From the NCBI GenBank assembly GCA_964607805.1, contig CAZSLF010000003.1:3190-67189 (forward strand): a stretch of 64,000 bases of DNA, written 5' to 3'. Numbering within the stretch: position 1 is the first letter of the stretch; every line of letters starts with the position of its first letter. Shown here one piece after another: positions 8,441-64,000 of this stretch. The DNA is from an uncultured Candidatus Saccharibacteria bacterium. Its GTDB lineage: Bacteria; Patescibacteriota; Minisyncoccia; Phycocordibacterales; CAIZLB01. The notes under the pieces were generated by a model. It was not told the origin of the DNA. It ran no database searches and was given only the letters and a program-made list of their open reading frames with translations. Both the position numbers and the translations under genes were made by a program.

Positions 8441-8469
8441 GGTGCGATTATATCATTTATAGTTAGTGG

Positions 8470-8590
8470 GATTCGGTCACAAATAATTTTCTCGTCGTCA
8501 CTCGAAAATTTTCGCGACCCCGGCTCGCGGCCAGCACTACTGTGCTGGCATCCGCTCCGCCTTTCTCATCGATCCGATCTCTCGAGAAAA
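8470..8590. repeat. GC-rich 101-nt conserved element plus short hairpin, copy 2 (tRNA-Ser-associated)
   Basis: Gap-free alignment to 3865-3965. Same position relative to tRNA, terminator and downstream minus-strand ORF. Confidence 0.8.
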
Positions 8591-8591
8591 G

Positions 8592-8630
8592 ATTAAAGGA
8601 CCACAGCAGTGTGGTCCTTTAATCTTTTCT
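8592..8630. terminator. intrinsic terminator (13-bp stem)
   Basis: ATTAAAGGACCAC-AGCAGT-GTGGTCCTTTAAT followed by CTTTTCT. The loop AGCAGT resembles the loop region of the 3989-4016 hairpin (GCAG then T). Confidence 0.65.
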
Positions 8631-8632
8631 AG

Positions 8633-8723
8633 CGGAGACGGAGGGATTCGAACCCTCGAAGGCCTTTTGAGGGACCTTACCTCTTTAGCAAAGAGGCACA
8701 TTCGACCGCTCTGACACGTCTCC
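8633..8723 (-). tRNA. tRNA-Ser (anticodon GCU), type II
   Basis: Acceptor GGAGACG/CGTCTCC, anticodon arm CCTCT-TTGCTAA-AGAGG, long variable arm, T arm GAGGG-TTCGAAT-CCCTC, discriminator G. Confidence 0.9.
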
Positions 8724-47400: not shown

Positions 47401-47497
47401 AGCTGTTTCTTGATTATTGATAATGGATAATGGCTTATTTATATAATATTGTAGATGAAATAAAGATGAAGAAAGCATGAAGTAAATCTTAAAACTG

Positions 47498-47575
47498 GGG
47501 ATAACCTCACAATATGCACCTTCTCCTGCTACGCTGTCGCTATTCGCATGAGAAGGTGCATATTGGAGTTATCCC
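47498..47575. repeat. long imperfect inverted repeat (about 26-bp arms, 24-nt GC-rich loop)
   Basis: GGGATAAC(CTCAC)AATATGCACCTTCTC - ctgctacgctgtcgctattcgcat - GAGAAGGTGCATATT(GGAG)TTATCCC. Confidence 0.8.
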
Positions 47576-47580
47576 ATATA

Positions 47581-47614
47581 AAAATTACTTCAGCTTTCAC
47601 TGAAGTAATTTTTT
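47581..47614. terminator. bidirectional intrinsic terminator (downstream of typA)
   Basis: AAAATTACTTCAG-CTTTCA-CTGAAGTAATTTT flanked by A and T tracts. Confidence 0.75.
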
Positions 47615-47671
47615 CCGAGTATTGTGAGAGAGCGGGGCAGGGTACGCAATCCGCGCGCAAAGTGCGACGCT

Positions 47672-49459: not shown

Positions 49460-49672
49460 TTTAATTTGATTATTTGTTGATTGTTGTTTTTCTTGAAAAT
49501 GACCTGTCGGTTATGACGACGAGCTCATTTTTCAATTAATAATTGTGAAAAAAATAAAAGGCCAAGAGCCTTATATAATTGAGCAAAACTATACATTATT
49601 TATCTGAAAAAGAAAAGAGCCCCACCCCTGGAGGGGGGTGGAGCTTGAATTCAGTTGTCGCCGATCTTTCGA

Positions 49673-50068
49673 TCAGACTTTGAGGACGACTCTGTCGTAC
49701 TTGGACCATGGCCGCTTGACCGAATCCGGCATAGTCAGAGTAACCTGACCAATACTGGGATCGACTTTGCTGACCGTATGGCATTGAATCACCTCGCCGT
49801 CGCGCAGGAAGACATGCAGGATGTTACCCTCGTCTTTCGCACGCTTCAGCGTTGATACATACTCAGGATTGTGAGCCAGTGAGAGTTGGAGCTCATCCGT
49901 GGTGAACGAATGGTCTCCGACTGACCTCTGGGTGTCGGCAATACTTGAGCCACGTGGCGTGTGAACTGACATTCGCGGTGCTGTCATGATGACAACGCCC
50001 ACGGCGGCAGCCAATGCGGTGATTACGATGGGTTTTAATCCACCTTCATTCAAAACAACCTTTTTCAT
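49673..50068 (-). CDS. hypothetical exported/membrane-anchored protein
   Basis: 131 aa, one N-terminal hydrophobic helix, GC-rich relative to neighbours. Terminator CCACCCCCCTCCAGGGGTGGGG plus T-tract at about 49610-49645 (minus strand). Confidence 0.5.
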   Translation of the reverse strand: MKKVVLNEGGLKPIVITALAAAVGVVIMTAPRMSVHTPRGSSIADTQRSVGDHSFTTDELQLSLAHNPEYVSTLKRAKDEGNILHVFLRDGEVIQCHTVSKVDPSIGQVTLTMPDSVKRPWSKYDRVVLKV

Positions 50069-57520: not shown

Positions 57521-59329
57521 ATGAAACTCAACCAAATCCGAAATTTTAGTATTATCGCGCATATCGACCACGGCAAGTCGACGCTTGCCGACCGTATGCT
57601 TGAAATTACGCATACAATTGAAAAGCGAAAGATGATGAATCAAGTGCTCGACAGCATGGAGCTTGAACGTGAGAAGGGGATTACGATCAAGATGCGACCA
57701 GTTCAGATGAAATATAAATCTGATGCAGGTGAAGAATTCGAGCTCAATTTAATCGACACCCCAGGCCATATCGATTTTTCATATGAAGTATCTCGAGCTC
57801 TCAAAGCTGTTGAAGGTTGTATTCTTTTGGTAGATGCGACACAAGGTGTTCAGGCTCAAACACTTACAACTCTTCGTATGGCACGCGAAACTGGTCTGAC
57901 TATTATTCCAGTTCTAAGTAAAGTTGATTCACCACTTGCAAGAATTGATGAAATGAAAAAACAAATGTCACGACTTCTAGATTGTGATCCAGGTACGATT
58001 ATGGAAACCTCAGGCAAAACTGGTCAAGGCGTACAAGCTCTTCTTGAAGAAATTATTATAAAAGTTCCAGCACCAAAAGAAGAAATTTTGGATTCAAATA
58101 GTTTGCGTGCTTTGGTTTTCGATTTTCAATATTCAAATCATAAAGGAGTAATTGTATATATTAGAGTAATGGAAGGCAGCGTCAAAAAAGGCGATGATCT
58201 TTTATTTAAAATCGCCAATGAAAAATTCCAAGCACTTGAAGTTGGAATTTTTACTCCTGATGAACAACCCATTGATCAATTAACAGCAGGAGAGACTGGA
58301 TATATTGTAACTGGAATTAAGCGACCGGGTATCGCTTCAGTGGGAGATACTATTACGCTTTTTAGAAAGCCACTCCCTGAACTTTTTGGATATATGAATC
58401 CAGCCCCTGTTGTTTGGGCTTCTGTATATCCTGAGGATGCAGACGACTTCGAACTATTAAAGCAAGCACTTGGAAGACTGCGATTATCTGACTCAGCTTT
58501 CTCACATGAAGAAGAATCATCAGGATCTCTTGGCCGAGGTTTTAGATGTGGATTTTTAGGTCTTCTTCATCTTGAAATTATTACTGAGCGCTTGAAACGA
58601 GAATTTAATTTGGATTTGGTAATTGCAACGCCGAGTATTACGTATGAAGTGGAGCTAAAAAACAACAAACATGTAACGGTATATTCACCTTCTCTTTTTC
58701 CAGATGATGGAAATGTAGTAAGCGTGCAAGAACCTTGGATGACTCTGCAGATCATTTCTCCTTCTGAATATACAGGTGCTGTATATCAACTTTTATACGA
58801 TCATGAAGGTGAATTGGTTGATTCTGAAACTTTTGGAGACGGACGAACAAGCCTTACTATCAAGATGCCACTTCGCGAACTTATGCGAAACTTTTTCGAC
58901 GAGCTTAAAAGTATTTCTTCAGGATATGCTTCTCTTAGTTATGAATTCGAATCTTTGAGAAAAGCCGATGTGACTCGTATGGATATTTTAGTTGCTGAAG
59001 AACCTGTTGAAGCCTTCACTCGTGTGGTTGCACAACGTCGCGCAGATGAAGAAGCTAACAAAGCAGTTGATAGATTGGAAGCGATTTTACCTCGTCAGAT
59101 GTTTGCCACAAAAATTCAAGCTCGGGCTAATGGCCGAATCATTGCCTCTCGAACTCTCTCTGCTATGCGAAAAGATGTAACCGGCCACCTATATGGAGGA
59201 GATGTTACTCGAAAGAATAAATTGCTAGACAAGCAAAAGAAAGGAAAAAAGAAAATGAAAGAGCGAGGAGTAGGGAAGGTAAATATTTCGCATGAAGTAT
59301 TCCTTAAAATGATGAAGACGGGAGAGTAG
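57521..59329 (+). CDS. lepA: translation elongation factor 4 (LepA)
   Basis: IRNFSIIAHIDHGKSTLADR, DTPGHIDF, SKVD. The LepA-specific C-terminal domain is present. 602 aa. Confidence 0.93.
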   Translation: MKLNQIRNFSIIAHIDHGKSTLADRMLEITHTIEKRKMMNQVLDSMELEREKGITIKMRPVQMKYKSDAGEEFELNLIDTPGHIDFSYEVSRALKAVEGCILLVDATQGVQAQTLTTLRMARETGLTIIPVLSKVDSPLARIDEMKKQMSRLLDCDPGTIMETSGKTGQGVQALLEEIIIKVPAPKEEILDSNSLRALVFDFQYSNHKGVIVYIRVMEGSVKKGDDLLFKIANEKFQALEVGIFTPDEQPIDQLTAGETGYIVTGIKRPGIASVGDTITLFRKPLPELFGYMNPAPVVWASVYPEDADDFELLKQALGRLRLSDSAFSHEEESSGSLGRGFRCGFLGLLHLEIITERLKREFNLDLVIATPSITYEVELKNNKHVTVYSPSLFPDDGNVVSVQEPWMTLQIISPSEYTGAVYQLLYDHEGELVDSETFGDGRTSLTIKMPLRELMRNFFDELKSISSGYASLSYEFESLRKADVTRMDILVAEEPVEAFTRVVAQRRADEEANKAVDRLEAILPRQMFATKIQARANGRIIASRTLSAMRKDVTGHLYGGDVTRKNKLLDKQKKGKKKMKERGVGKVNISHEVFLKMMKTGE

Positions 59330-59340
59330 GGAAAATGAAA

Positions 59341-59374
59341 ATCGCCACACGGGGGGGTGTGGCGATCGATTTTA
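59341..59374. terminator. bidirectional intrinsic terminator
   Basis: ATCGCCACAC-GGGGG-GTGTGGCGAT, with an A-rich tract before and TTTT after. Lies between convergent lepA and the 59395-59979 ORF. Confidence 0.75.
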
Positions 59375-59394
59375 ACTTTGCCGGCATGAGATCG

Positions 59395-59979
59395 CTAGAG
59401 CATCTTTTGCCAATCGTATAGAGTAATTAGTTTCCGCTCCAGATTGGTTCCCTTGCTCGGGTCTATGCAGATTTGTGCCAATCTTCTGTCGATTAATGCT
59501 AGCCCTCCATTCCCATTTGATGGAGGAAAACAAAAATTGATTAGCAGGGATAGAAGTGGGCAATCTTTAGATAACTCTACACTGTCTGGAAGTATTCCAA
59601 GCACAGGAAAGAGATCAATCATTATAGAAAGCTTGCCTCCAAGCCTCTCTCTGCACTCGAGAATTGTTTTTAGATCGTTGTTCTTGCGCGCAACACGCAT
59701 GCAGTCTCGAAGATTCTTTTCTGTTACTGTGACATTTGCAAATACTGCAACTTCGAGGGCGGTGTTTAAATCACCATTAAAAATCGCGTGTATAAACAAA
59801 AGTTGGTAAGCCTCCTGTTTTGGTCGTTGGCCCTTCGCAGCGGTTTTGGAATCAGGTGGCATCTGTGAGATGATCGTTCGCGCTTTTGGAAGCTTTTTGT
59901 TATCCAGTGCATGCAGAAGCTGCTTTTCGAGCGACATAGGAGTTCTGGGACGAGGTTTCCGCCTTTTTTTACCAGCCAT
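59395..59979 (-). CDS. hypothetical protein with basic N-terminus
   Basis: 194-aa ORF (MAGKKRRKPRPR...). GC-rich relative to flanks. No recognisable domain. Confidence 0.5.
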   Translation of the reverse strand: MAGKKRRKPRPRTPMSLEKQLLHALDNKKLPKARTIISQMPPDSKTAAKGQRPKQEAYQLLFIHAIFNGDLNTALEVAVFANVTVTEKNLRDCMRVARKNNDLKTILECRERLGGKLSIMIDLFPVLGILPDSVELSKDCPLLSLLINFCFPPSNGNGGLALIDRRLAQICIDPSKGTNLERKLITLYDWQKML

Positions 59980-60125
59980 ATAGTAATGGAGTTGTGGGTG
60001 TGCGATCAGACAAAGAGCTGTCTGACATCTGGAAAAAAGAATACAACATTAACAAAGTTAGTCAATGTATCTGTAATAATTCAAAATAGGACTTTTAGTC
60101 CATGTTTATTCTTCGCTAAAATTGA

Positions 60126-60242
60126 CTAGAAATTCCCCGTCAAACCTGGAATATACAGCGCAATCATAGAAAGGATAATTAATACGACGAGCACGCCCCA
60201 AGCGAACTTTATTATTTTTTTGGCTTTTGGATCAAATAGCAT
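60126..60242 (-). CDS. possible 38-aa single-TM small protein
   Basis: ATG...TAG ORF MLFDPKAKKIIKFAWGVLVVLIILSMIALYIPGLTGNF, below the 60-aa track cutoff. TATAGT lies 16 nt upstream. Confidence 0.35.
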   Translation of the reverse strand: MLFDPKAKKIIKFAWGVLVVLIILSMIALYIPGLTGNF

Positions 60243-60337
60243 AAGTGGTTACTAGTGTACTATAATGTTTGTATATCAGCCAAGTAGGGCAGATTTCCAC
60301 ATTTTTCAATAAATTAATATAAATTATTCAACGAAGC

Positions 60338-60775
60338 ATGCGCGAATTTCAAGAAAAAGAAAAAATAAGAAGAAGATTATATTCGAAAACTTCAATTGTT
60401 ATTTTATTTATAATAATGGTCTTTGTTGCGCGTGGTGCAATTGGTTTATATTCCAAAGAAAAAACTAGTCGTTTCGAAGTAGAAAGACTTTCAAAACAAA
60501 AAGTGGAAATTGAGAATCGTCTCAAAACAGTTTCTAAACAAAATGAAATGTTGGCAACAACTCAAGGTATTGAATATGAGATACGTAATAAATTCGATGT
60601 TGTGAAAGAGGGCGAAGGCGTAATCGTCATAGTAGATAAGGAATTGCCGCCACCCCCTGAAGAAAAGAAAAGTTTCCTCAAGAAATTTTGGGGTTCTGTG
60701 AAAGGAGTTTTTGGAGCAGGTGATGAGGAGAAAAGTGAGCAAGCAGTCACTAAGCCAACTGAAAAAGGGGAGTAG
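60338..60775 (+). CDS. septum formation initiator (FtsB/DivIC-like) protein
   Basis: Short cytoplasmic tail, TM helix, coiled coil, then IEYEIRNKFDVVKEGEGVIVIVD, which resembles the DivIC C-terminal pattern. Confidence 0.65.
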   Translation: MREFQEKEKIRRRLYSKTSIVILFIIMVFVARGAIGLYSKEKTSRFEVERLSKQKVEIENRLKTVSKQNEMLATTQGIEYEIRNKFDVVKEGEGVIVIVDKELPPPPEEKKSFLKKFWGSVKGVFGAGDEEKSEQAVTKPTEKGE

Positions 60776-60879
60776 GTTTACCCAGTTTTTGTGGGTTTTT
60801 GACTCGCTTTTTGCCCGCTTCGACCCATTGACTTTTTGCATTAAATGTGTAAACTAATTATGTTCATTGATAGGCCTTG

Positions 60880-61350
60880 AGTAAGCATATCTTGGACCCG
60901 ATCCCCCGCTTAGGATCCCCGGCGCAGTTGTCATCGTTGGTATTACACCTCACTGAGTGGTGCACACACTGACACACACAATGACAACTGCGCCATAATT
61001 TCCAGGCTGTGGCTAGCGCAAGCGACGCTGACCCTGTGCCAGGAAACTGGCAGCCTCTGCCTGCAAAGCAAGTGCTGCTTGGCCAGACGGCCGGATCGCG
61101 GGTTTCTCGTTTAGGTTACCGTGACTCCGGCCGTCTGGCGCCGAATTTGCACTTAGGTGCAATTGCGCTATCAAGCGCAAAATTCAAAACACTCTGTTTG
61201 CTCGAAGTCGAGCATTCAAAAAGTTCTTTCAATCGAGCCTTTGGCTCAAACAGTTCTTCCGAGCTTTAAGCTCAATCAGTTCCTTTGTCTCTGTCGTGCG
61301 CGGTAGAGACACCATCCTATAACAGGGTCCATTTCGGACCCTGTTTTTTA
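60880..61350 (+). ncRNA. candidate large structured RNA of unknown class (GC-rich, ends in an intrinsic terminator)
   Basis: Perfect helices 60921-60934/60981-60994 (14 bp) and 61082-61094/61127-61139 (13 bp). GAAA-capped hairpin 61037-61052, at least 6 further hairpins, terminator 61321-61350. Possible promoter TTGACT-N16-TAAACT at 60828-60855. Confidence 0.45.
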
Positions 61351-61374
61351 TTTATATGATATATTGTCAAACAT

Positions 61375-62325
61375 ATGACCACTACTCATTCTCCTGAGGA
61401 AAAAGACGAGCTGCTAAAAAAAATTGCAGAAATTGAAGCAAGCATGAATATGCCGGATTTTTGGTCTGATCATGCGAAGGCGGAAGCAGCCACGAAAGAA
61501 TATCAAGAATTGAAAGATGAATTGGAAAATGGTCCACAAAAGAAAAAGGCAAATGCTGGTCCATATGATGCGGGTGGCGCAATTATAACAATATTTGCAG
61601 GGGCGGGCGGCGATGATTCAGAAGATTTCGCTGCTATGCTTTTTAATATGTATTCCAAATATATAGCGAAGAAAAATTGGTCTGCTGGAATAATTCATGA
61701 GCATGAAAATGATCATGGTGGCTATAGAAATATTTCTTTTGAGGTTAGCGGAAAAAATGCATACGGAACGCTTAAACATGAATCCGGTGTGCATCGCTTA
61801 GTTCGAATTTCTCCCTTCAATGCTAAACAACTTCGCCATACAAGTTTTGCAATGGTTGAAGTAATTCCGAAATTTGAGAAGAGTGCACTGACGGCACTTA
61901 ATATGGAAATTCCTGATGATGATCTGGAAATCACTTACGCACGAGCAGGTGGCCCTGGTGGGCAAAATGTAAACAAAAGAGAAACTGCAGTGCGTATTGT
62001 TCATAAGCCAACAAAAATTTCAGTTCATGCAAGCAACGAGCGATCGCAAGCTCAAAACAAAGAGCGAGCAATCGCAATTCTAAAAGCAAAAATTTATGCA
62101 CGTGAAGAAGAAGAGAGAATGGCAAAGGAAAAAGGAATGTATATATCGAAAACTACTGACGCTGAGTGGGGAAGTCAGATTCGCTCATATGTATTGCATC
62201 CATACAAGATGGTAAAAGATATTAGAACTGGTTATGAGACAAGTCAGGTAGATAAGGTGTTGGCGGGGGATTTAGATGAGTTGATTGAGGCGATGGAAAA
62301 CCTTAATACCGATTCTGTTTCGTGA
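61375..62325 (+). CDS. prfB: peptide chain release factor 2 (no programmed frameshift, shortened domain 1)
   Basis: SPF tripeptide (RISPFNA) and GGQ ([10 protein letters not shown]). 316 aa as a single ORF. Confidence 0.9.
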
Positions 62326-62343
62326 AAATGCTATGATTAGGGT

Positions 62344-62763
62344 GTGAATAACTTTGTAAACAATACTTCTATGGAATCAACTTGGTACGAAACACTAATA
62401 AAACCGACATGGGCGCCACCTTCGTGGCTTTTTGGTCCGGTTTGGACTGTGTTGTACGTCATGATTGGTATTTCTTTTACCAGCGTACTTTTGCTTTATA
62501 TAAGAAAAGAGATTCGGTTTGGGGTGATATTGCCATTTATCCTAAATTTGATCTTTAATTTAGCTTTTACACCTATACAATTTGGACTTAAAAGCAATTT
62601 ACTAGCTGCAATCGATATTTTGCTAGTCTTGGGAACTTTAATTTGGGCAATGACCGTAATCTACAAGCACAAGCGATGGATTACATATATTCAGATTCCA
62701 TATTTGCTATGGGTGGCCTTCGCAACCGTATTACAGCTAACAATTACAACGATTAATTGGTAA
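62344..62763 (+). CDS. tspO: TspO/MBR family tryptophan-rich sensory protein
   Basis: WYETLIKPTWAPPSWLFGPVWTVLYVMIG with 5 TM helices. The track start is GTG; the ATG at 62371 is possible. Confidence 0.8.
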   Translation: MNNFVNNTSMESTWYETLIKPTWAPPSWLFGPVWTVLYVMIGISFTSVLLLYIRKEIRFGVILPFILNLIFNLAFTPIQFGLKSNLLAAIDILLVLGTLIWAMTVIYKHKRWITYIQIPYLLWVAFATVLQLTITTINW

Positions 62764-62857
62764 TTGCTAGCGCGCCCCGCTAATTTGCTGTTTTCAATCT
62801 ACGCCTGGCATCAGCTCCGTATTGCGCCTTTGCGCCATAGTTGGTAAAATCAAACAC

Positions 62858-63538
62858 ATGCTCCTACTAGAAAAAGTTACCAAGTTATACAACGATAATT
62901 CATTAGCCCTCGACGGTATTAGTCTACATATAAAACCAAAGGAATTTATCACGATTATCGGCCACTCTGGCGCCGGAAAATCGACTTTGCTCAAGATGAT
63001 TCTTGGAGAAGAGAAACCTACGGACGGTGCGGTGTATTTTGAGAATACAGATATTCATTCTCTAAAAAAACGAGAGGTAAATGACTATAGACGAAGAATT
63101 GGAACTGTTTTCCAAGACTTCCGACTTTTGCCTGATAAGACAGCATATGAAAATGTTGCTTTCGCTATGGAAGCTGCCGGCCGAACAGATGATGAAATCG
63201 CAGCCGATGTGCCCCATGTGCTCGAACTTGTAGACCTTGGACGAAAGTTACATAGTTTTCCGCATCAATTGTCAGGTGGGGAGAAGCAGCGTGTAGCAAT
63301 CGCACGTGCAATTGTAAACCAGCCCGATTTGATTATCGCCGACGAGCCAACTGGAAACTTAGATCCAGTGAATACATATGAAATTGTGCAGATTTTGAAA
63401 AAGATCAACGACCTCGGAACTACAATCCTTCTTACAACTCACAATACTGGTGTAGTCGATCATATTGGCAAGCGAGTTGTTTCTATGAAAAACGGTAAAA
63501 TTGCCCACGACAGCCATGAAGGGAAATATATAATTTAA
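62858..63538 (+). CDS. ftsE: cell division ATP-binding protein FtsE
   Basis: [11 protein letters not shown]..., [37 protein letters not shown]. Followed by ftsX. The ATG at 62858 is preferred to the upstream extension. Confidence 0.9.
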
Positions 63539-63546
63539 TTGCACAT

Positions 63547-64000
63547 ATGATAATCACTAAAATAAGAAGAACGTTGCGCGGAGGATTTATAAGTTTTTGG
63601 AGAAATGGCTATGTGTCGCTAGCATCGGTTTTGGTTATGACTGTGACTCTTTTTGTAATTTCATCTATGCTCCTTTTTGGTGCAATGCTTCAGTCAACAG
63701 TCGAGACAATTAAAAACAAGGTGGATATAAGTGTGTATTTTAGAATAGATGCAGCGGAGGCTGATATTGCTGTTTTGGAAAAGAGACTTGAGGCGCTGCC
63801 AGAGGTTGCTGAAGTTGAGTCATTTACAAGACAAGAAGCTTATGACAATTTTAGAGAAAGACATAAGGATGATAACTCTACTCTCGATGCACTAGACGAA
63901 ATCGGAGCAAATCCTTTCGGAGCGAGTTTTAATATAAAAGCGAAGGACCCTTCTCAATACGAAGCAATTGTAAAATTCATGGAAGCCGAGCAAAGTGCTT
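63547..64000 (+). CDS. ftsX: cell division permease-like protein FtsX (partial, runs off the window)
   Basis: Open frame from the ATG at 63547: MIITKIRRTLRGGFISFWRNGYVSLASVLVMTVTLF..., then a periplasmic domain (VYF...EVESFTRQEAYDNF). Position directly after ftsE. Confidence 0.8.
   Translation, partial: MIITKIRRTLRGGFISFWRNGYVSLASVLVMTVTLFVISSMLLFGAMLQSTVETIKNKVDISVYFRIDAAEADIAVLEKRLEALPEVAEVESFTRQEAYDNFRERHKDDNSTLDALDEIGANPFGASFNIKAKDPSQYEAIVKFMEAEQSA

Follow-up and report, generated by a model that had tools for sequence, protein, structure and literature searches.

A predicted, independently transcribed structured RNA gene upstream of prfB in a contig of Patescibacteria

Described RNA systems and the locus under study

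The protein-sequestering RNAs CsrB and RsmZ are built from many hairpins and carry A(N)GGA motifs in about 5-20 copies, mostly in hairpin loops. The CrcZ and CrcY RNAs of Pseudomonas, about 400 nt in length, titrate Hfq/Crc in trans by means of repeated A-rich motifs, and ToxI-like antitoxin RNAs consist of tandem direct repeats of about 36 nt which are followed by a toxin gene. To our knowledge, almost nothing is known about the non-coding RNAs of Patescibacteria (candidate phyla radiation). Here, a stretch of 64 kb from contig CAZSLF010000003.1 of an uncultured Candidatus Saccharibacteria bacterium, in the following referred to as the window, was analyzed with respect to a GC-rich, hairpin-dense region located between a DivIC/FtsB-like gene and prfB. 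With high probability, positions 60856-61351 of the + strand constitute an independently transcribed gene of a structured non-coding RNA with a predicted length of about 490 nt. The RNA represents a previously undescribed family, as it has no match in Rfam and literature searches returned no such RNA, in particular no description of one in Patescibacteria.

The predicted RNA has a two-part anatomy, in which a fast-evolving, GC-rich scaffold of long, near-perfect hairpins is followed by a more conserved 3' part. The latter presents the motif AGUUCYUUY in one to four copies, for which a single-stranded state is predicted; a C/A-rich tract and finally the terminator follow. The element resembles CsrB/RsmZ in its organization as a stand-alone gene with an intrinsic terminator, many hairpins and several copies of a short motif, and also in the wide variation of length and hairpin number between relatives in which the motif persists. 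In contrast to CsrB/RsmZ, the motif is AGUUCYUUY, it is located in predicted single-stranded linkers in 1-4 copies, and no CsrA-like partner was identified. The element has no similarity to CsrB/RsmZ, either in sequence or by covariance model, and AGGA, as judged by eye, occurs in the RNA of the window only twice, at 60912-60915 (partly within the stem of hairpin H1) and at 61041-61044 (stem and GAAA loop of the hairpin at 61037-61052). With CrcZ/CrcY the element has in common a similar size, repeated linear single-stranded motifs on a structured body and the trans action proposed here; it differs in its pyrimidine-rich instead of A-rich motif, in the unrelated organism and in the missing Rfam match. 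Membership in the CsrB/RsmZ or CrcZ families was rejected, as the features that define these families were not found. A type III toxin-antitoxin RNA was rejected as well: only two short tandem repeats of 11-12 nt are present, outside the motif region, and prfB or a tRNA is located downstream in place of a toxin gene.

The OLE, GOLLD, ROOL, raiA and HEARO-type search is directed at long, GC-rich structured intergenic regions in AT-rich genomes (PMC6429828, PMC8723152, PMC11109978). The locus bears the same signature of a long, GC-rich and highly structured intergenic region in an AT-rich genome; however, the cores of these RNAs align across genera and all of them are in Rfam, whereas the present element has no Rfam match and its 5' scaffold is unalignable between related genera. 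TIGR arrays are guide-RNA arrays of Tas proteins which are frequent in Patescibacteria and phages and of which a stem-loop variant exists; their units follow a regular period (36-nt products) with edge/loop repeats or palindromes and variable spacers of 8-12 nt, and they contain box C/D-like UG...CCA motifs and lie next to a tas gene which encodes a Nop domain (PMC12045711). The occurrence in Patescibacteria, the serial stem-loops with short single-stranded stretches between them and the terminator at the end are similar at the locus, but here the linkers are conserved and their spacing is irregular (12-35 nt). A TIGR array was ruled out by this irregular spacing, by the lack of a tandem array in the motif region and by the lack of a Nop domain among the neighbors (lepA, divIC/ftsB, prfB, tspO, ftsE, a Mur ligase gene and the gene of a protein without Pfam match).

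Relatives, conserved structure and strand

A first-pass annotation of the window had pointed out a GC-rich gap of about 600 bp at this position and had proposed a candidate novel structured RNA. The gap extends over 599 bp (60776-61374), and its GC content of 0.585 at 60900-61099 and 0.565 at 61000-61199, with up to 0.63 over 150 nt, exceeds that of the flanks (0.27-0.44) and of the whole window (0.38). On the + strand, the RNA region folds with a minimum free energy (MFE) of -197.9 kcal/mol vs -144.7 +/- 6.1 kcal/mol for dinucleotide shuffles (z = -8.7), with 0 of 100 shuffles being as good, and it is the longest and most GC-rich among the hairpin-rich intergenic regions of the window. The candidate was thus borne out by its folding, by the missing Rfam family and by relatives with structure-preserving substitutions. 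The promoter-like pair TTGACT-N16-TAAACT (60828-60855) and the terminator before prfB (61321-61345 followed by a T-run), both proposed in the same annotation, were recovered by the scanner.

An Rfam scan and a homologue search, which had been suggested as checks, were carried out. At the gathering score, Rfam 15 returned four tRNAs only for the whole 64 kb, i.e. no significant match of the region to a known family; at E<=10, positions 60700-61450 gave only chance-level matches of <=20 bits to unrelated eukaryotic or viral families. No Rfam match was obtained inside the element in eight homologous loci. ARAGORN detected neither a tmRNA nor a tRNA at 58000-64000 and no tmRNA in the nine related loci, and the ACCA after 61310 follows a local hairpin and not an acceptor stem. 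The earlier statement that the cores of RNase P, SRP, tmRNA and T-box are lacking therefore agrees with Rfam at both thresholds and with ARAGORN.

Relatives were found by protein searches with prfB and the FtsB-like protein, followed by retrieval of the contigs encoding the closest matches. In total ten distinct versions of the element were obtained, namely that of the window and nine from contigs of related Patescibacteria (L090, L094, L096, L095, L083, L085, L088, L097 and L089), again with structure-preserving substitutions. The FtsB of L090 is 91% identical, and identical copies of this locus were present in three more runs (L091-L093); in L089 the element follows pyruvate kinase and not ftsB. 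The length of the element varies between 264 and 497 nt. Window and L090 share 80% identity over 466 nt, L094 has only short blocks in common with these two, for L083 and L095 the alignment is restricted to 131 nt at the 3' end, and the remaining versions have only the motif or the terminator in common. For versions more distant than L094, homology is indicated by position, promoter, motif and 3' end. Judging by these alignments, the 5' hairpin scaffold evolves very fast and the 3' motif region and the terminator are conserved. Searches of 80 prfB loci from GTDB species with the region by blastn and nhmmer revealed no homologue of the element (0 of 80), the GC-rich spots upstream of prfB in these loci being tRNAs. 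A metagenome scan with the FtsB-like protein yielded two distant loci only (FtsB about 50% identical), both of which lack the element, and therefore the RNA family is confined to a narrow clade of Patescibacteria (Paceibacteria-like).

According to the comparison of the versions, the gene possesses its own conserved sigma-70-type promoter and an intrinsic terminator. The -35 box TTGACT is identical in 10 of 10 versions and is followed 16-18 nt later by a -10 box of the TAnnnT type. A hairpin plus T-run on the same strand closes every one of the ten versions, and the 3' arm of the terminator and its tail (CTTCGC-TTTTTTGTT) are recognisably similar in most of them. The C/A-rich tract before the terminator, which is CAYCCUAUA-like, reads CAUCCUAUA in the window and CACCCUAUA in the distant version L088. 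On the + strand all ten versions fold better than shuffles, with z values between -3.5 and -10.

Only the window and L090 (2 of 10 versions) have prfB directly downstream of the element. Four versions (L083, L094, L095 and L096) have tRNA-Thr(GGU) at this place and the other four (L085, L088, L089 and L097) a DUF5069/TMEM175 gene; in L083 and L095, the tRNA plus an opposite-strand gene are located between the element and prfB. To judge from these loci, the element stays in place while the downstream gene changes. Since the downstream gene varies among the relatives, the element is taken to be an independent gene and not a leader of prfB. Of the two options left by the first-pass annotation, the independent RNA was retained; the prfB leader is not supported, as prfB is not the next gene in 8 of 10 versions and is present without the element in more distant relatives. 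Additionally, it was observed that six relatives have tRNA-Thr(GGU) downstream: four of them (L083, L094, L095, L096) directly after the terminator, and L085 and L089 behind the DUF5069/TMEM175 gene. The window and L090 lack this tRNA gene here.

For the analysis of the structure, window, L090 and L094 were aligned with MAFFT (alignment A1), and RNAalifold predicted 119 pairs for this alignment, 21 of which are changed on both sides and still paired. Covariance models were built for the H1-H2 domain (R1, from window and L090) and for H5-H6 (R2). R1 recovers window, L090 and L094, the latter at 40 bits (E = 6e-7), and in its alignment of the three sequences 62 of 62 informative cells are paired. 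R2 recovers window and L090 but not L094, and neither model reaches the more distant versions. In the H2 stem 13 of 13 pairs hold in all three sequences, four of them changed on both sides and one changed from G-C to G·U; when, as a control, the partner strand was slid by 1-3 columns, 24-40% remained paired. According to a hand-made helix table, compensated pairs are also present in H2a, H5, H10 and the terminator.

The G·U pairs, the terminators and the asymmetry of folding in two versions point to an RNA which would be read from the + strand. G·U pairs are present in conserved helices of L090 (H2 and H5), the window (H11) and L094 (H1 and terminator). On the opposite strand each of these pairs would become an A·C mismatch, which favors the + strand; in an alignment of the minus strand to the model, one of them is mismatched. 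The T-runs after the terminator hairpins are on the + strand, and z values of -8.1 (+) vs -1.1 (-) in L095 and of -6.0 (+) vs -2.0 (-) in L096 were calculated.

The AGUUCYUU motif, possible function and competing explanations

The sequence (A)GUUCYUU is found in 1-4 copies in 8 of 10 versions at about 70-85% of the element length, with GTTCTTT in seven versions (12 copies) and GTTCCTT in four. Averaged over the motif positions, the predicted probability of being unpaired is 0.61, vs 0.37 in the rest of the RNA. In the whole window the motif is not enriched (7 matches vs 4.5 expected); its local cluster and its conservation in the relatives are unusual, not its window-wide abundance. The first-pass annotation had described three modules of motif plus hairpin. 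All three are present in the window, with the corrections that the first starts at 61222 and not at 61221 and that the second, AGTTCTTCC, falls outside the strict AGTTCYTTY. The copies are spaced by 30 and 26 nt in the window and by 12-35 nt in relatives, and in L090, L094, L095 and L083 two copies are 12 nt apart with no hairpin between them. Moreover, H7 and H9 of the window are missing from L090. In the versions compared, the hairpins between the motif copies thus seem dispensable, and the copies persist as flanking hairpins are lost or replaced. Such persistence of the motif next to dispensable hairpins is the pattern to be expected if the motif works and the helices stabilise or scaffold it.

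With regard to function, the RNA may act in trans, with stability being provided by the hairpin scaffold and the repeated pyrimidine motif being the working part. It would then serve as a multivalent platform (sponge or decoy), either for a protein with affinity for pyrimidine-rich RNA in the single-stranded state or for RNA partners rich in purines. By analogy with known systems, a sponge or decoy mechanism is a tentative proposal that is rather doubtful on its own; for the explanation as a whole, in which the independent non-coding RNA gene and this mechanism are combined, a blended judgement comes out slightly above even.

Several observations weigh against this explanation. The transcript and its ends are predictions, and no binding partner was identified from the sequence. 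The motif is lacking in L085 and L097, and its complement is not concentrated near start codons in the window. Due to this lack of clustering and to the scarcity of Shine-Dalgarno sites, which most genes of the window do not have, pairing of the motif with ribosome-binding sites is unsupported and was rejected. The claim is further limited by the narrow distribution and by the small number of sequences: only ten distinct ones are at hand, of which three align well, too few for a covariation statistic such as R-scape. When the full single-sequence MFE fold of the window is transferred to L090, 116 of 136 pairs are kept and 20 are broken. Because three sequences align, R2 misses L094 and these 20 pairs break, compensatory change, as far as the aligned versions reveal, supports the main helices and not every pair of the whole fold. 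In addition, several versions fold equally well on the minus strand (the minus strand of the RNA region in the window reaches z = -9.6), and other intergenic regions in the window are hairpin-rich with strongly negative folding z values too, so that structure alone is not unique to this locus. Long perfect stems, rapid turnover and equal folding of both strands would also fit palindromes that act at the DNA level.

The last points lead to the possibility of a non-functional, hairpin-rich spacer, made up of stacked terminators or an insulator, or of DNA-level palindromes with fast turnover. It can draw on the folding of the other intergenic regions and of the minus strand, on the unusual length and perfection of the stems and on a 5' part which is unalignable beyond close relatives, and is still regarded as improbable. 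Against a spacer speak the identical -35 box in all ten versions with a terminator in each and the conservation of the motif, predicted to be single-stranded, and of the tract before the terminator, and the + strand is favored by the G·U pairs and by the fold asymmetry in L095 and L096. Further copies of any part of the element or of its hairpins are lacking within the 64-kb window, the part of the genome that could be searched, and phage and plasmid collections contained no DNA similar to the element. In viral contigs, a pattern of the triple motif matched 44 contigs, all of them unrelated tandem repeats or coding and without a GC-rich upstream part, and a pattern of the conserved linker matched none. 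A REP/MITE-type palindromic repeat was rejected, as there is no second copy in the 64 kb and the position is conserved between species. Finally, 250-500 nt of GC-rich DNA would be costly in a small, streamlined, AT-rich genome.

Among the readings that accept an RNA, a cis-acting leader or attenuator of prfB would start at 60856 and gate read-through at the terminator (61321-61351) by alternative pairing. In the window and in L090, the distance from the end of the terminator to the prfB ATG is about 24 nt, and GACCCUGU at 61030-61037, which repeats the 3' arm of the terminator (61337-61345), could compete for its 5' arm ACAGGGUC (p of about 0.02 against shuffles), a pairing kept in L090 via a G·U pair. 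Such an anti-terminator candidate is absent from the other eight versions, in which prfB is not directly next, and is therefore limited to the lineage of window and L090, which at 80% identity count as one lineage and a single observation. Given also the other downstream genes in 8 of 10 versions, the tRNA and opposite-strand gene separating element and prfB in L083 and L095, the 0 of 80 more distant prfB loci carrying the element (several have tRNAs just upstream) and the lack of a match to any riboswitch, T-box or leader family, a prfB leader is considered very improbable, and there is a small probability that the lineage of window and L090 gained some read-through control. Equally little weight is given to a precursor that would be cut into several small RNAs, each with an AGUUCYUUY 'seed' and a stabilising hairpin. 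The units of the window in series (61222-61247, 61252-61273 and 61278-61310) and the predicted single-stranded state of the motifs are in accordance with it; the unit is not conserved, however, because in L090, L094, L095 and L083 two copies are 12 nt apart without a hairpin. Even less credible is a highly divergent universal RNA (tmRNA, RNase P RNA, SRP RNA or 6S RNA). The size of the element (about 0.3-0.5 kb), its high GC content within an AT-rich genome and its location among housekeeping genes would fit, and GCCAGGAAACUGGCAGCC loosely recalls helix 8 of SRP, by eye and not by any tool. That SRP-like reading was rejected: GCCAGGAAACUGGCAGCC forms a perfect GAAA hairpin without the internal loops of SRP, L094 lacks this hairpin, and none of the SRP models gives a score. 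Neither the window nor the eight homologous loci gave an Rfam match to tmRNA, RNase P, SRP or 6S RNA at E<=10, ARAGORN found no tmRNA at any locus, and a length varying from 264 to 497 nt with a core unalignable between close genera is not how universal RNAs behave. The probability that the element encodes the 86-aa protein of the open reading frame (ORF) at 61009-61269 is close to nil. This ORF with its GTG start exists, but its composition had already been called unconvincing, and in agreement with this the frame in L090 is broken by indels (a similar fragment of 40 aa is followed by a frame shift) and L094 has no corresponding ORF. In L096, a minus-strand gene call overlaps the 3' end of the RNA and the tRNA, and looks like a spurious ORF on the RNA, as does the 86-aa ORF of the window, which is one example of the spurious ORFs that gene callers place on this RNA.

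For a streamlined genome, an independent RNA gene of 0.25-0.5 kb represents a considerable investment, and the perfectly conserved promoter suggests strong expression; for both reasons the RNA would probably be important to these organisms. Candidate roles are a regulator or sponge in bacteria that seemingly initiate translation without Shine-Dalgarno sequences, or a stable RNA scaffold. Its evolution is unusual in that the helices stay long and perfect while their sequences and number change and the short motif is constant. That a GC-rich 'hairpin scaffold' RNA family with CUUUC-type motifs constitutes a global regulatory layer in the clade, whose genomes are tiny, is considered unlikely. Such a layer would comprise the 0.5-kb RNA and a paralogous pair (3830-4027 and 8441-8632, about 0.2 kb each), and these RNAs could titrate a protein binding single-stranded RNA or mimic the pyrimidine-rich 3' tail of the 16S rRNA. 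The scaffold would be selected only to stay in the form of long perfect helices, which would explain its extreme turnover with compensatory change.

Feature coordinates, neighboring genes and further structured elements

Table 1. Features of the predicted RNA gene and of its flanks (positions of the window)
Feature	Position	Strand	Description	Basis
Upstream hairpins	60780-60807	+	two overlapping terminator-like hairpins directly 3' of the stop codon of the DivIC/FtsB-like gene	scanner
Promoter	60828-60855	+	-35 TTGACT, 16-nt spacer, -10 TAAACT	scanner
Predicted non-coding transcript	60856-61351	+	about 490 nt	ends deduced from promoter and terminator
5' leader	60862-60897	+	GUUCA (60862-60866) may pair with UGGAC (60893-60897)	tentative
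Hairpin H1	60900-60917	+	GAUCC/GGAUC, C-rich loop	conserved pairing
Domain H2	60921-60994	+	13-14 bp closing stem 60921-60934/60981-60994	repeat finder, covariance model
Small hairpin enclosed by H2	60946-60949/60959-60962	+	CACC/GGUG	
CA-rich strand enclosed by H2	60969-60981	+	conserved, CUGACACACACAA	
Central region	60995-61081	+	conserved linker AUAAUUUCC	conserved in window, L090 and L094
GAAA-capped hairpin	61037-61052	+	central region, perfect stem	
Hairpin AAGCA/UGCUU	61066-61080	+	central region	
Hairpin H5	61082-61139	+	14-bp perfect stem 61082-61095/61126-61139, variable tip	repeat finder
Small hairpins H6, H7, H8	61148-61213	+	H6 61148-61161, H7 61164-61179, H8 61200-61213	
3' motif region	61222-61310	+	three motif copies alternating with hairpins	
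Motif copies	61222-61230, 61252-61260, 61278-61286	+	AGUUCUUUC, AGUUCUUCC, AGUUCCUUU; predicted single-stranded	
Hairpins alternating with motif copies	61235-61247, 61261-61273, 61287-61310	+		
C/A-rich tract, then intrinsic terminator	61311-61351	+	tract ACCAUCCUAUA	scanner, homologue comparison

The positions of the features are summarized in Table 1. The terminator-like hairpins behind the DivIC/FtsB-like gene would end the upstream mRNA before the promoter of the RNA gene and separate both transcripts. Pairing in the 5' leader is kept in L094, and in L090 one U·G is changed to U-A and one pair is broken. In H1, 5 of 5 pairs hold in the three species, with one A-U to G·U change. The perfect 14-bp stem of H2 had been described correctly before and was extended by the repeat finder to 60921-60937/60978-60994 (17 nt, 94% complementary). 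The structure of the central region is ambiguous in the predictions because the GAAA hairpin is absent from L094 despite sequence conservation, and an alternative pairing UUUCC-GGC/GCC-GGAAA is possible. The stem of H5, noted earlier as 13 bp (61082-61094/61127-61139), exists and is in fact one pair longer; in L090 one C-G pair of it is replaced by U·G, a mismatch if read on the minus strand. At this place L094 has another perfect stem, of 13 bp, which is matched by position only, with no score from R2. The smaller hairpins listed in the first-pass annotation (61037-61052, 61066-61080, 61148-61161 and 61165-61178) are present in the sequence as described. H7 is deleted in L090; the UUAG loop of H6 is kept, and L094 has a different stem at the position of H6. 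The terminator consists of the stem 61321-61330/61336-61345 and the subsequent T-run (repeat finder and scanner).

The genes in the neighborhood encode a Mur ligase, LepA, a protein without Pfam match, DivIC, RF2, TspO and FtsE. The DivIC/FtsB-like ORF (60338-60775) has a weak Pfam DivIC match. The prfB gene (61375-62325) is a single uninterrupted ORF of 316 aa and can be read without the +1 frameshift site that is common in bacterial RF2 genes. The match of its product to the PCRF domain profile is limited to the C-terminal half, and it is therefore considered to be a short RF2. An exact look-up of the prfB protein of the window found no record of it in the given form, and a protein search with it returned a 100% match (P0001); its relatives are all metagenome-assembled genomes of Patescibacteria (Paceibacteria, Parcubacteria, or labelled 'Saccharibacteria'), and the best GTDB species representative is only 69% identical. 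A 194-aa ORF without Pfam match (59395-59979, minus strand) is located between lepA and the ftsB-like gene. It looks like a recent insertion, because L090 and L094 have no called gene between these two genes (gaps of 223 and 372 nt).

Further observations concern the window in general. Most of its 57 crudely called genes are without a Shine-Dalgarno-like sequence and many have a TATAAT-like box within about 10-25 nt of the ATG. This suggests that translation in this organism is leaderless or does not depend on Shine-Dalgarno sequences. Two paralogous, GC-rich and hairpin-dense intergenic elements with 85% column identity are located at 3830-4027 and 8441-8632. Each of them adjoins a minus-strand long-arm tRNA (4028-4114 and 8633-8723, respectively) and ends in a long bidirectional terminator. 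Their common sequence is GGUCAC..CUCGUCGUCACUCG..CGCGACCCCGNCUCGCGGCCAGCACNACUGUGCUGGCAUCCGCUCCGYCUUUCUCAUC, in which CCGYCUUUCUC resembles the AGUUCYUUY of the RNA adjoining prfB. The stem around UCGUCGUCACUC covaries between the two copies, the MFE z values range from -5.6 to -8.1 and there is no Rfam match; the pair is probably a second new family of small RNAs.

The intergenic region at 1147-1428 is AT-rich (GC 0.30) and has an extreme folding z of -11 to -14. Four perfect palindromes of about 31 nt each follow one another here and form an array of hairpins that covary or of sites that resemble operators. Three of these are close to AAUUGG-N6-CAAAUUG-N6'-CCAAUU and the first is looser, and the inner parts differ and yet stay complementary (GGGTATGCC, GATATCA, GAGGTCA and GAAGTGC). 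Another GC-rich patch (up to 0.57) at 49626-50068 is interpreted not as an RNA but as a real ORF on the minus strand (49673-50068), the N-terminus of which is signal-peptide-like. Finally, the region 47479-47671 comprises a near-perfect hairpin of about 28 bp (GGGGATAACCTCACAATATGCACCTTCTC... / ...GAGAAGGTGCATATTGGAGTTATCCC), a second strong hairpin and a GC-rich tail, and folds with an MFE z of -7.8.

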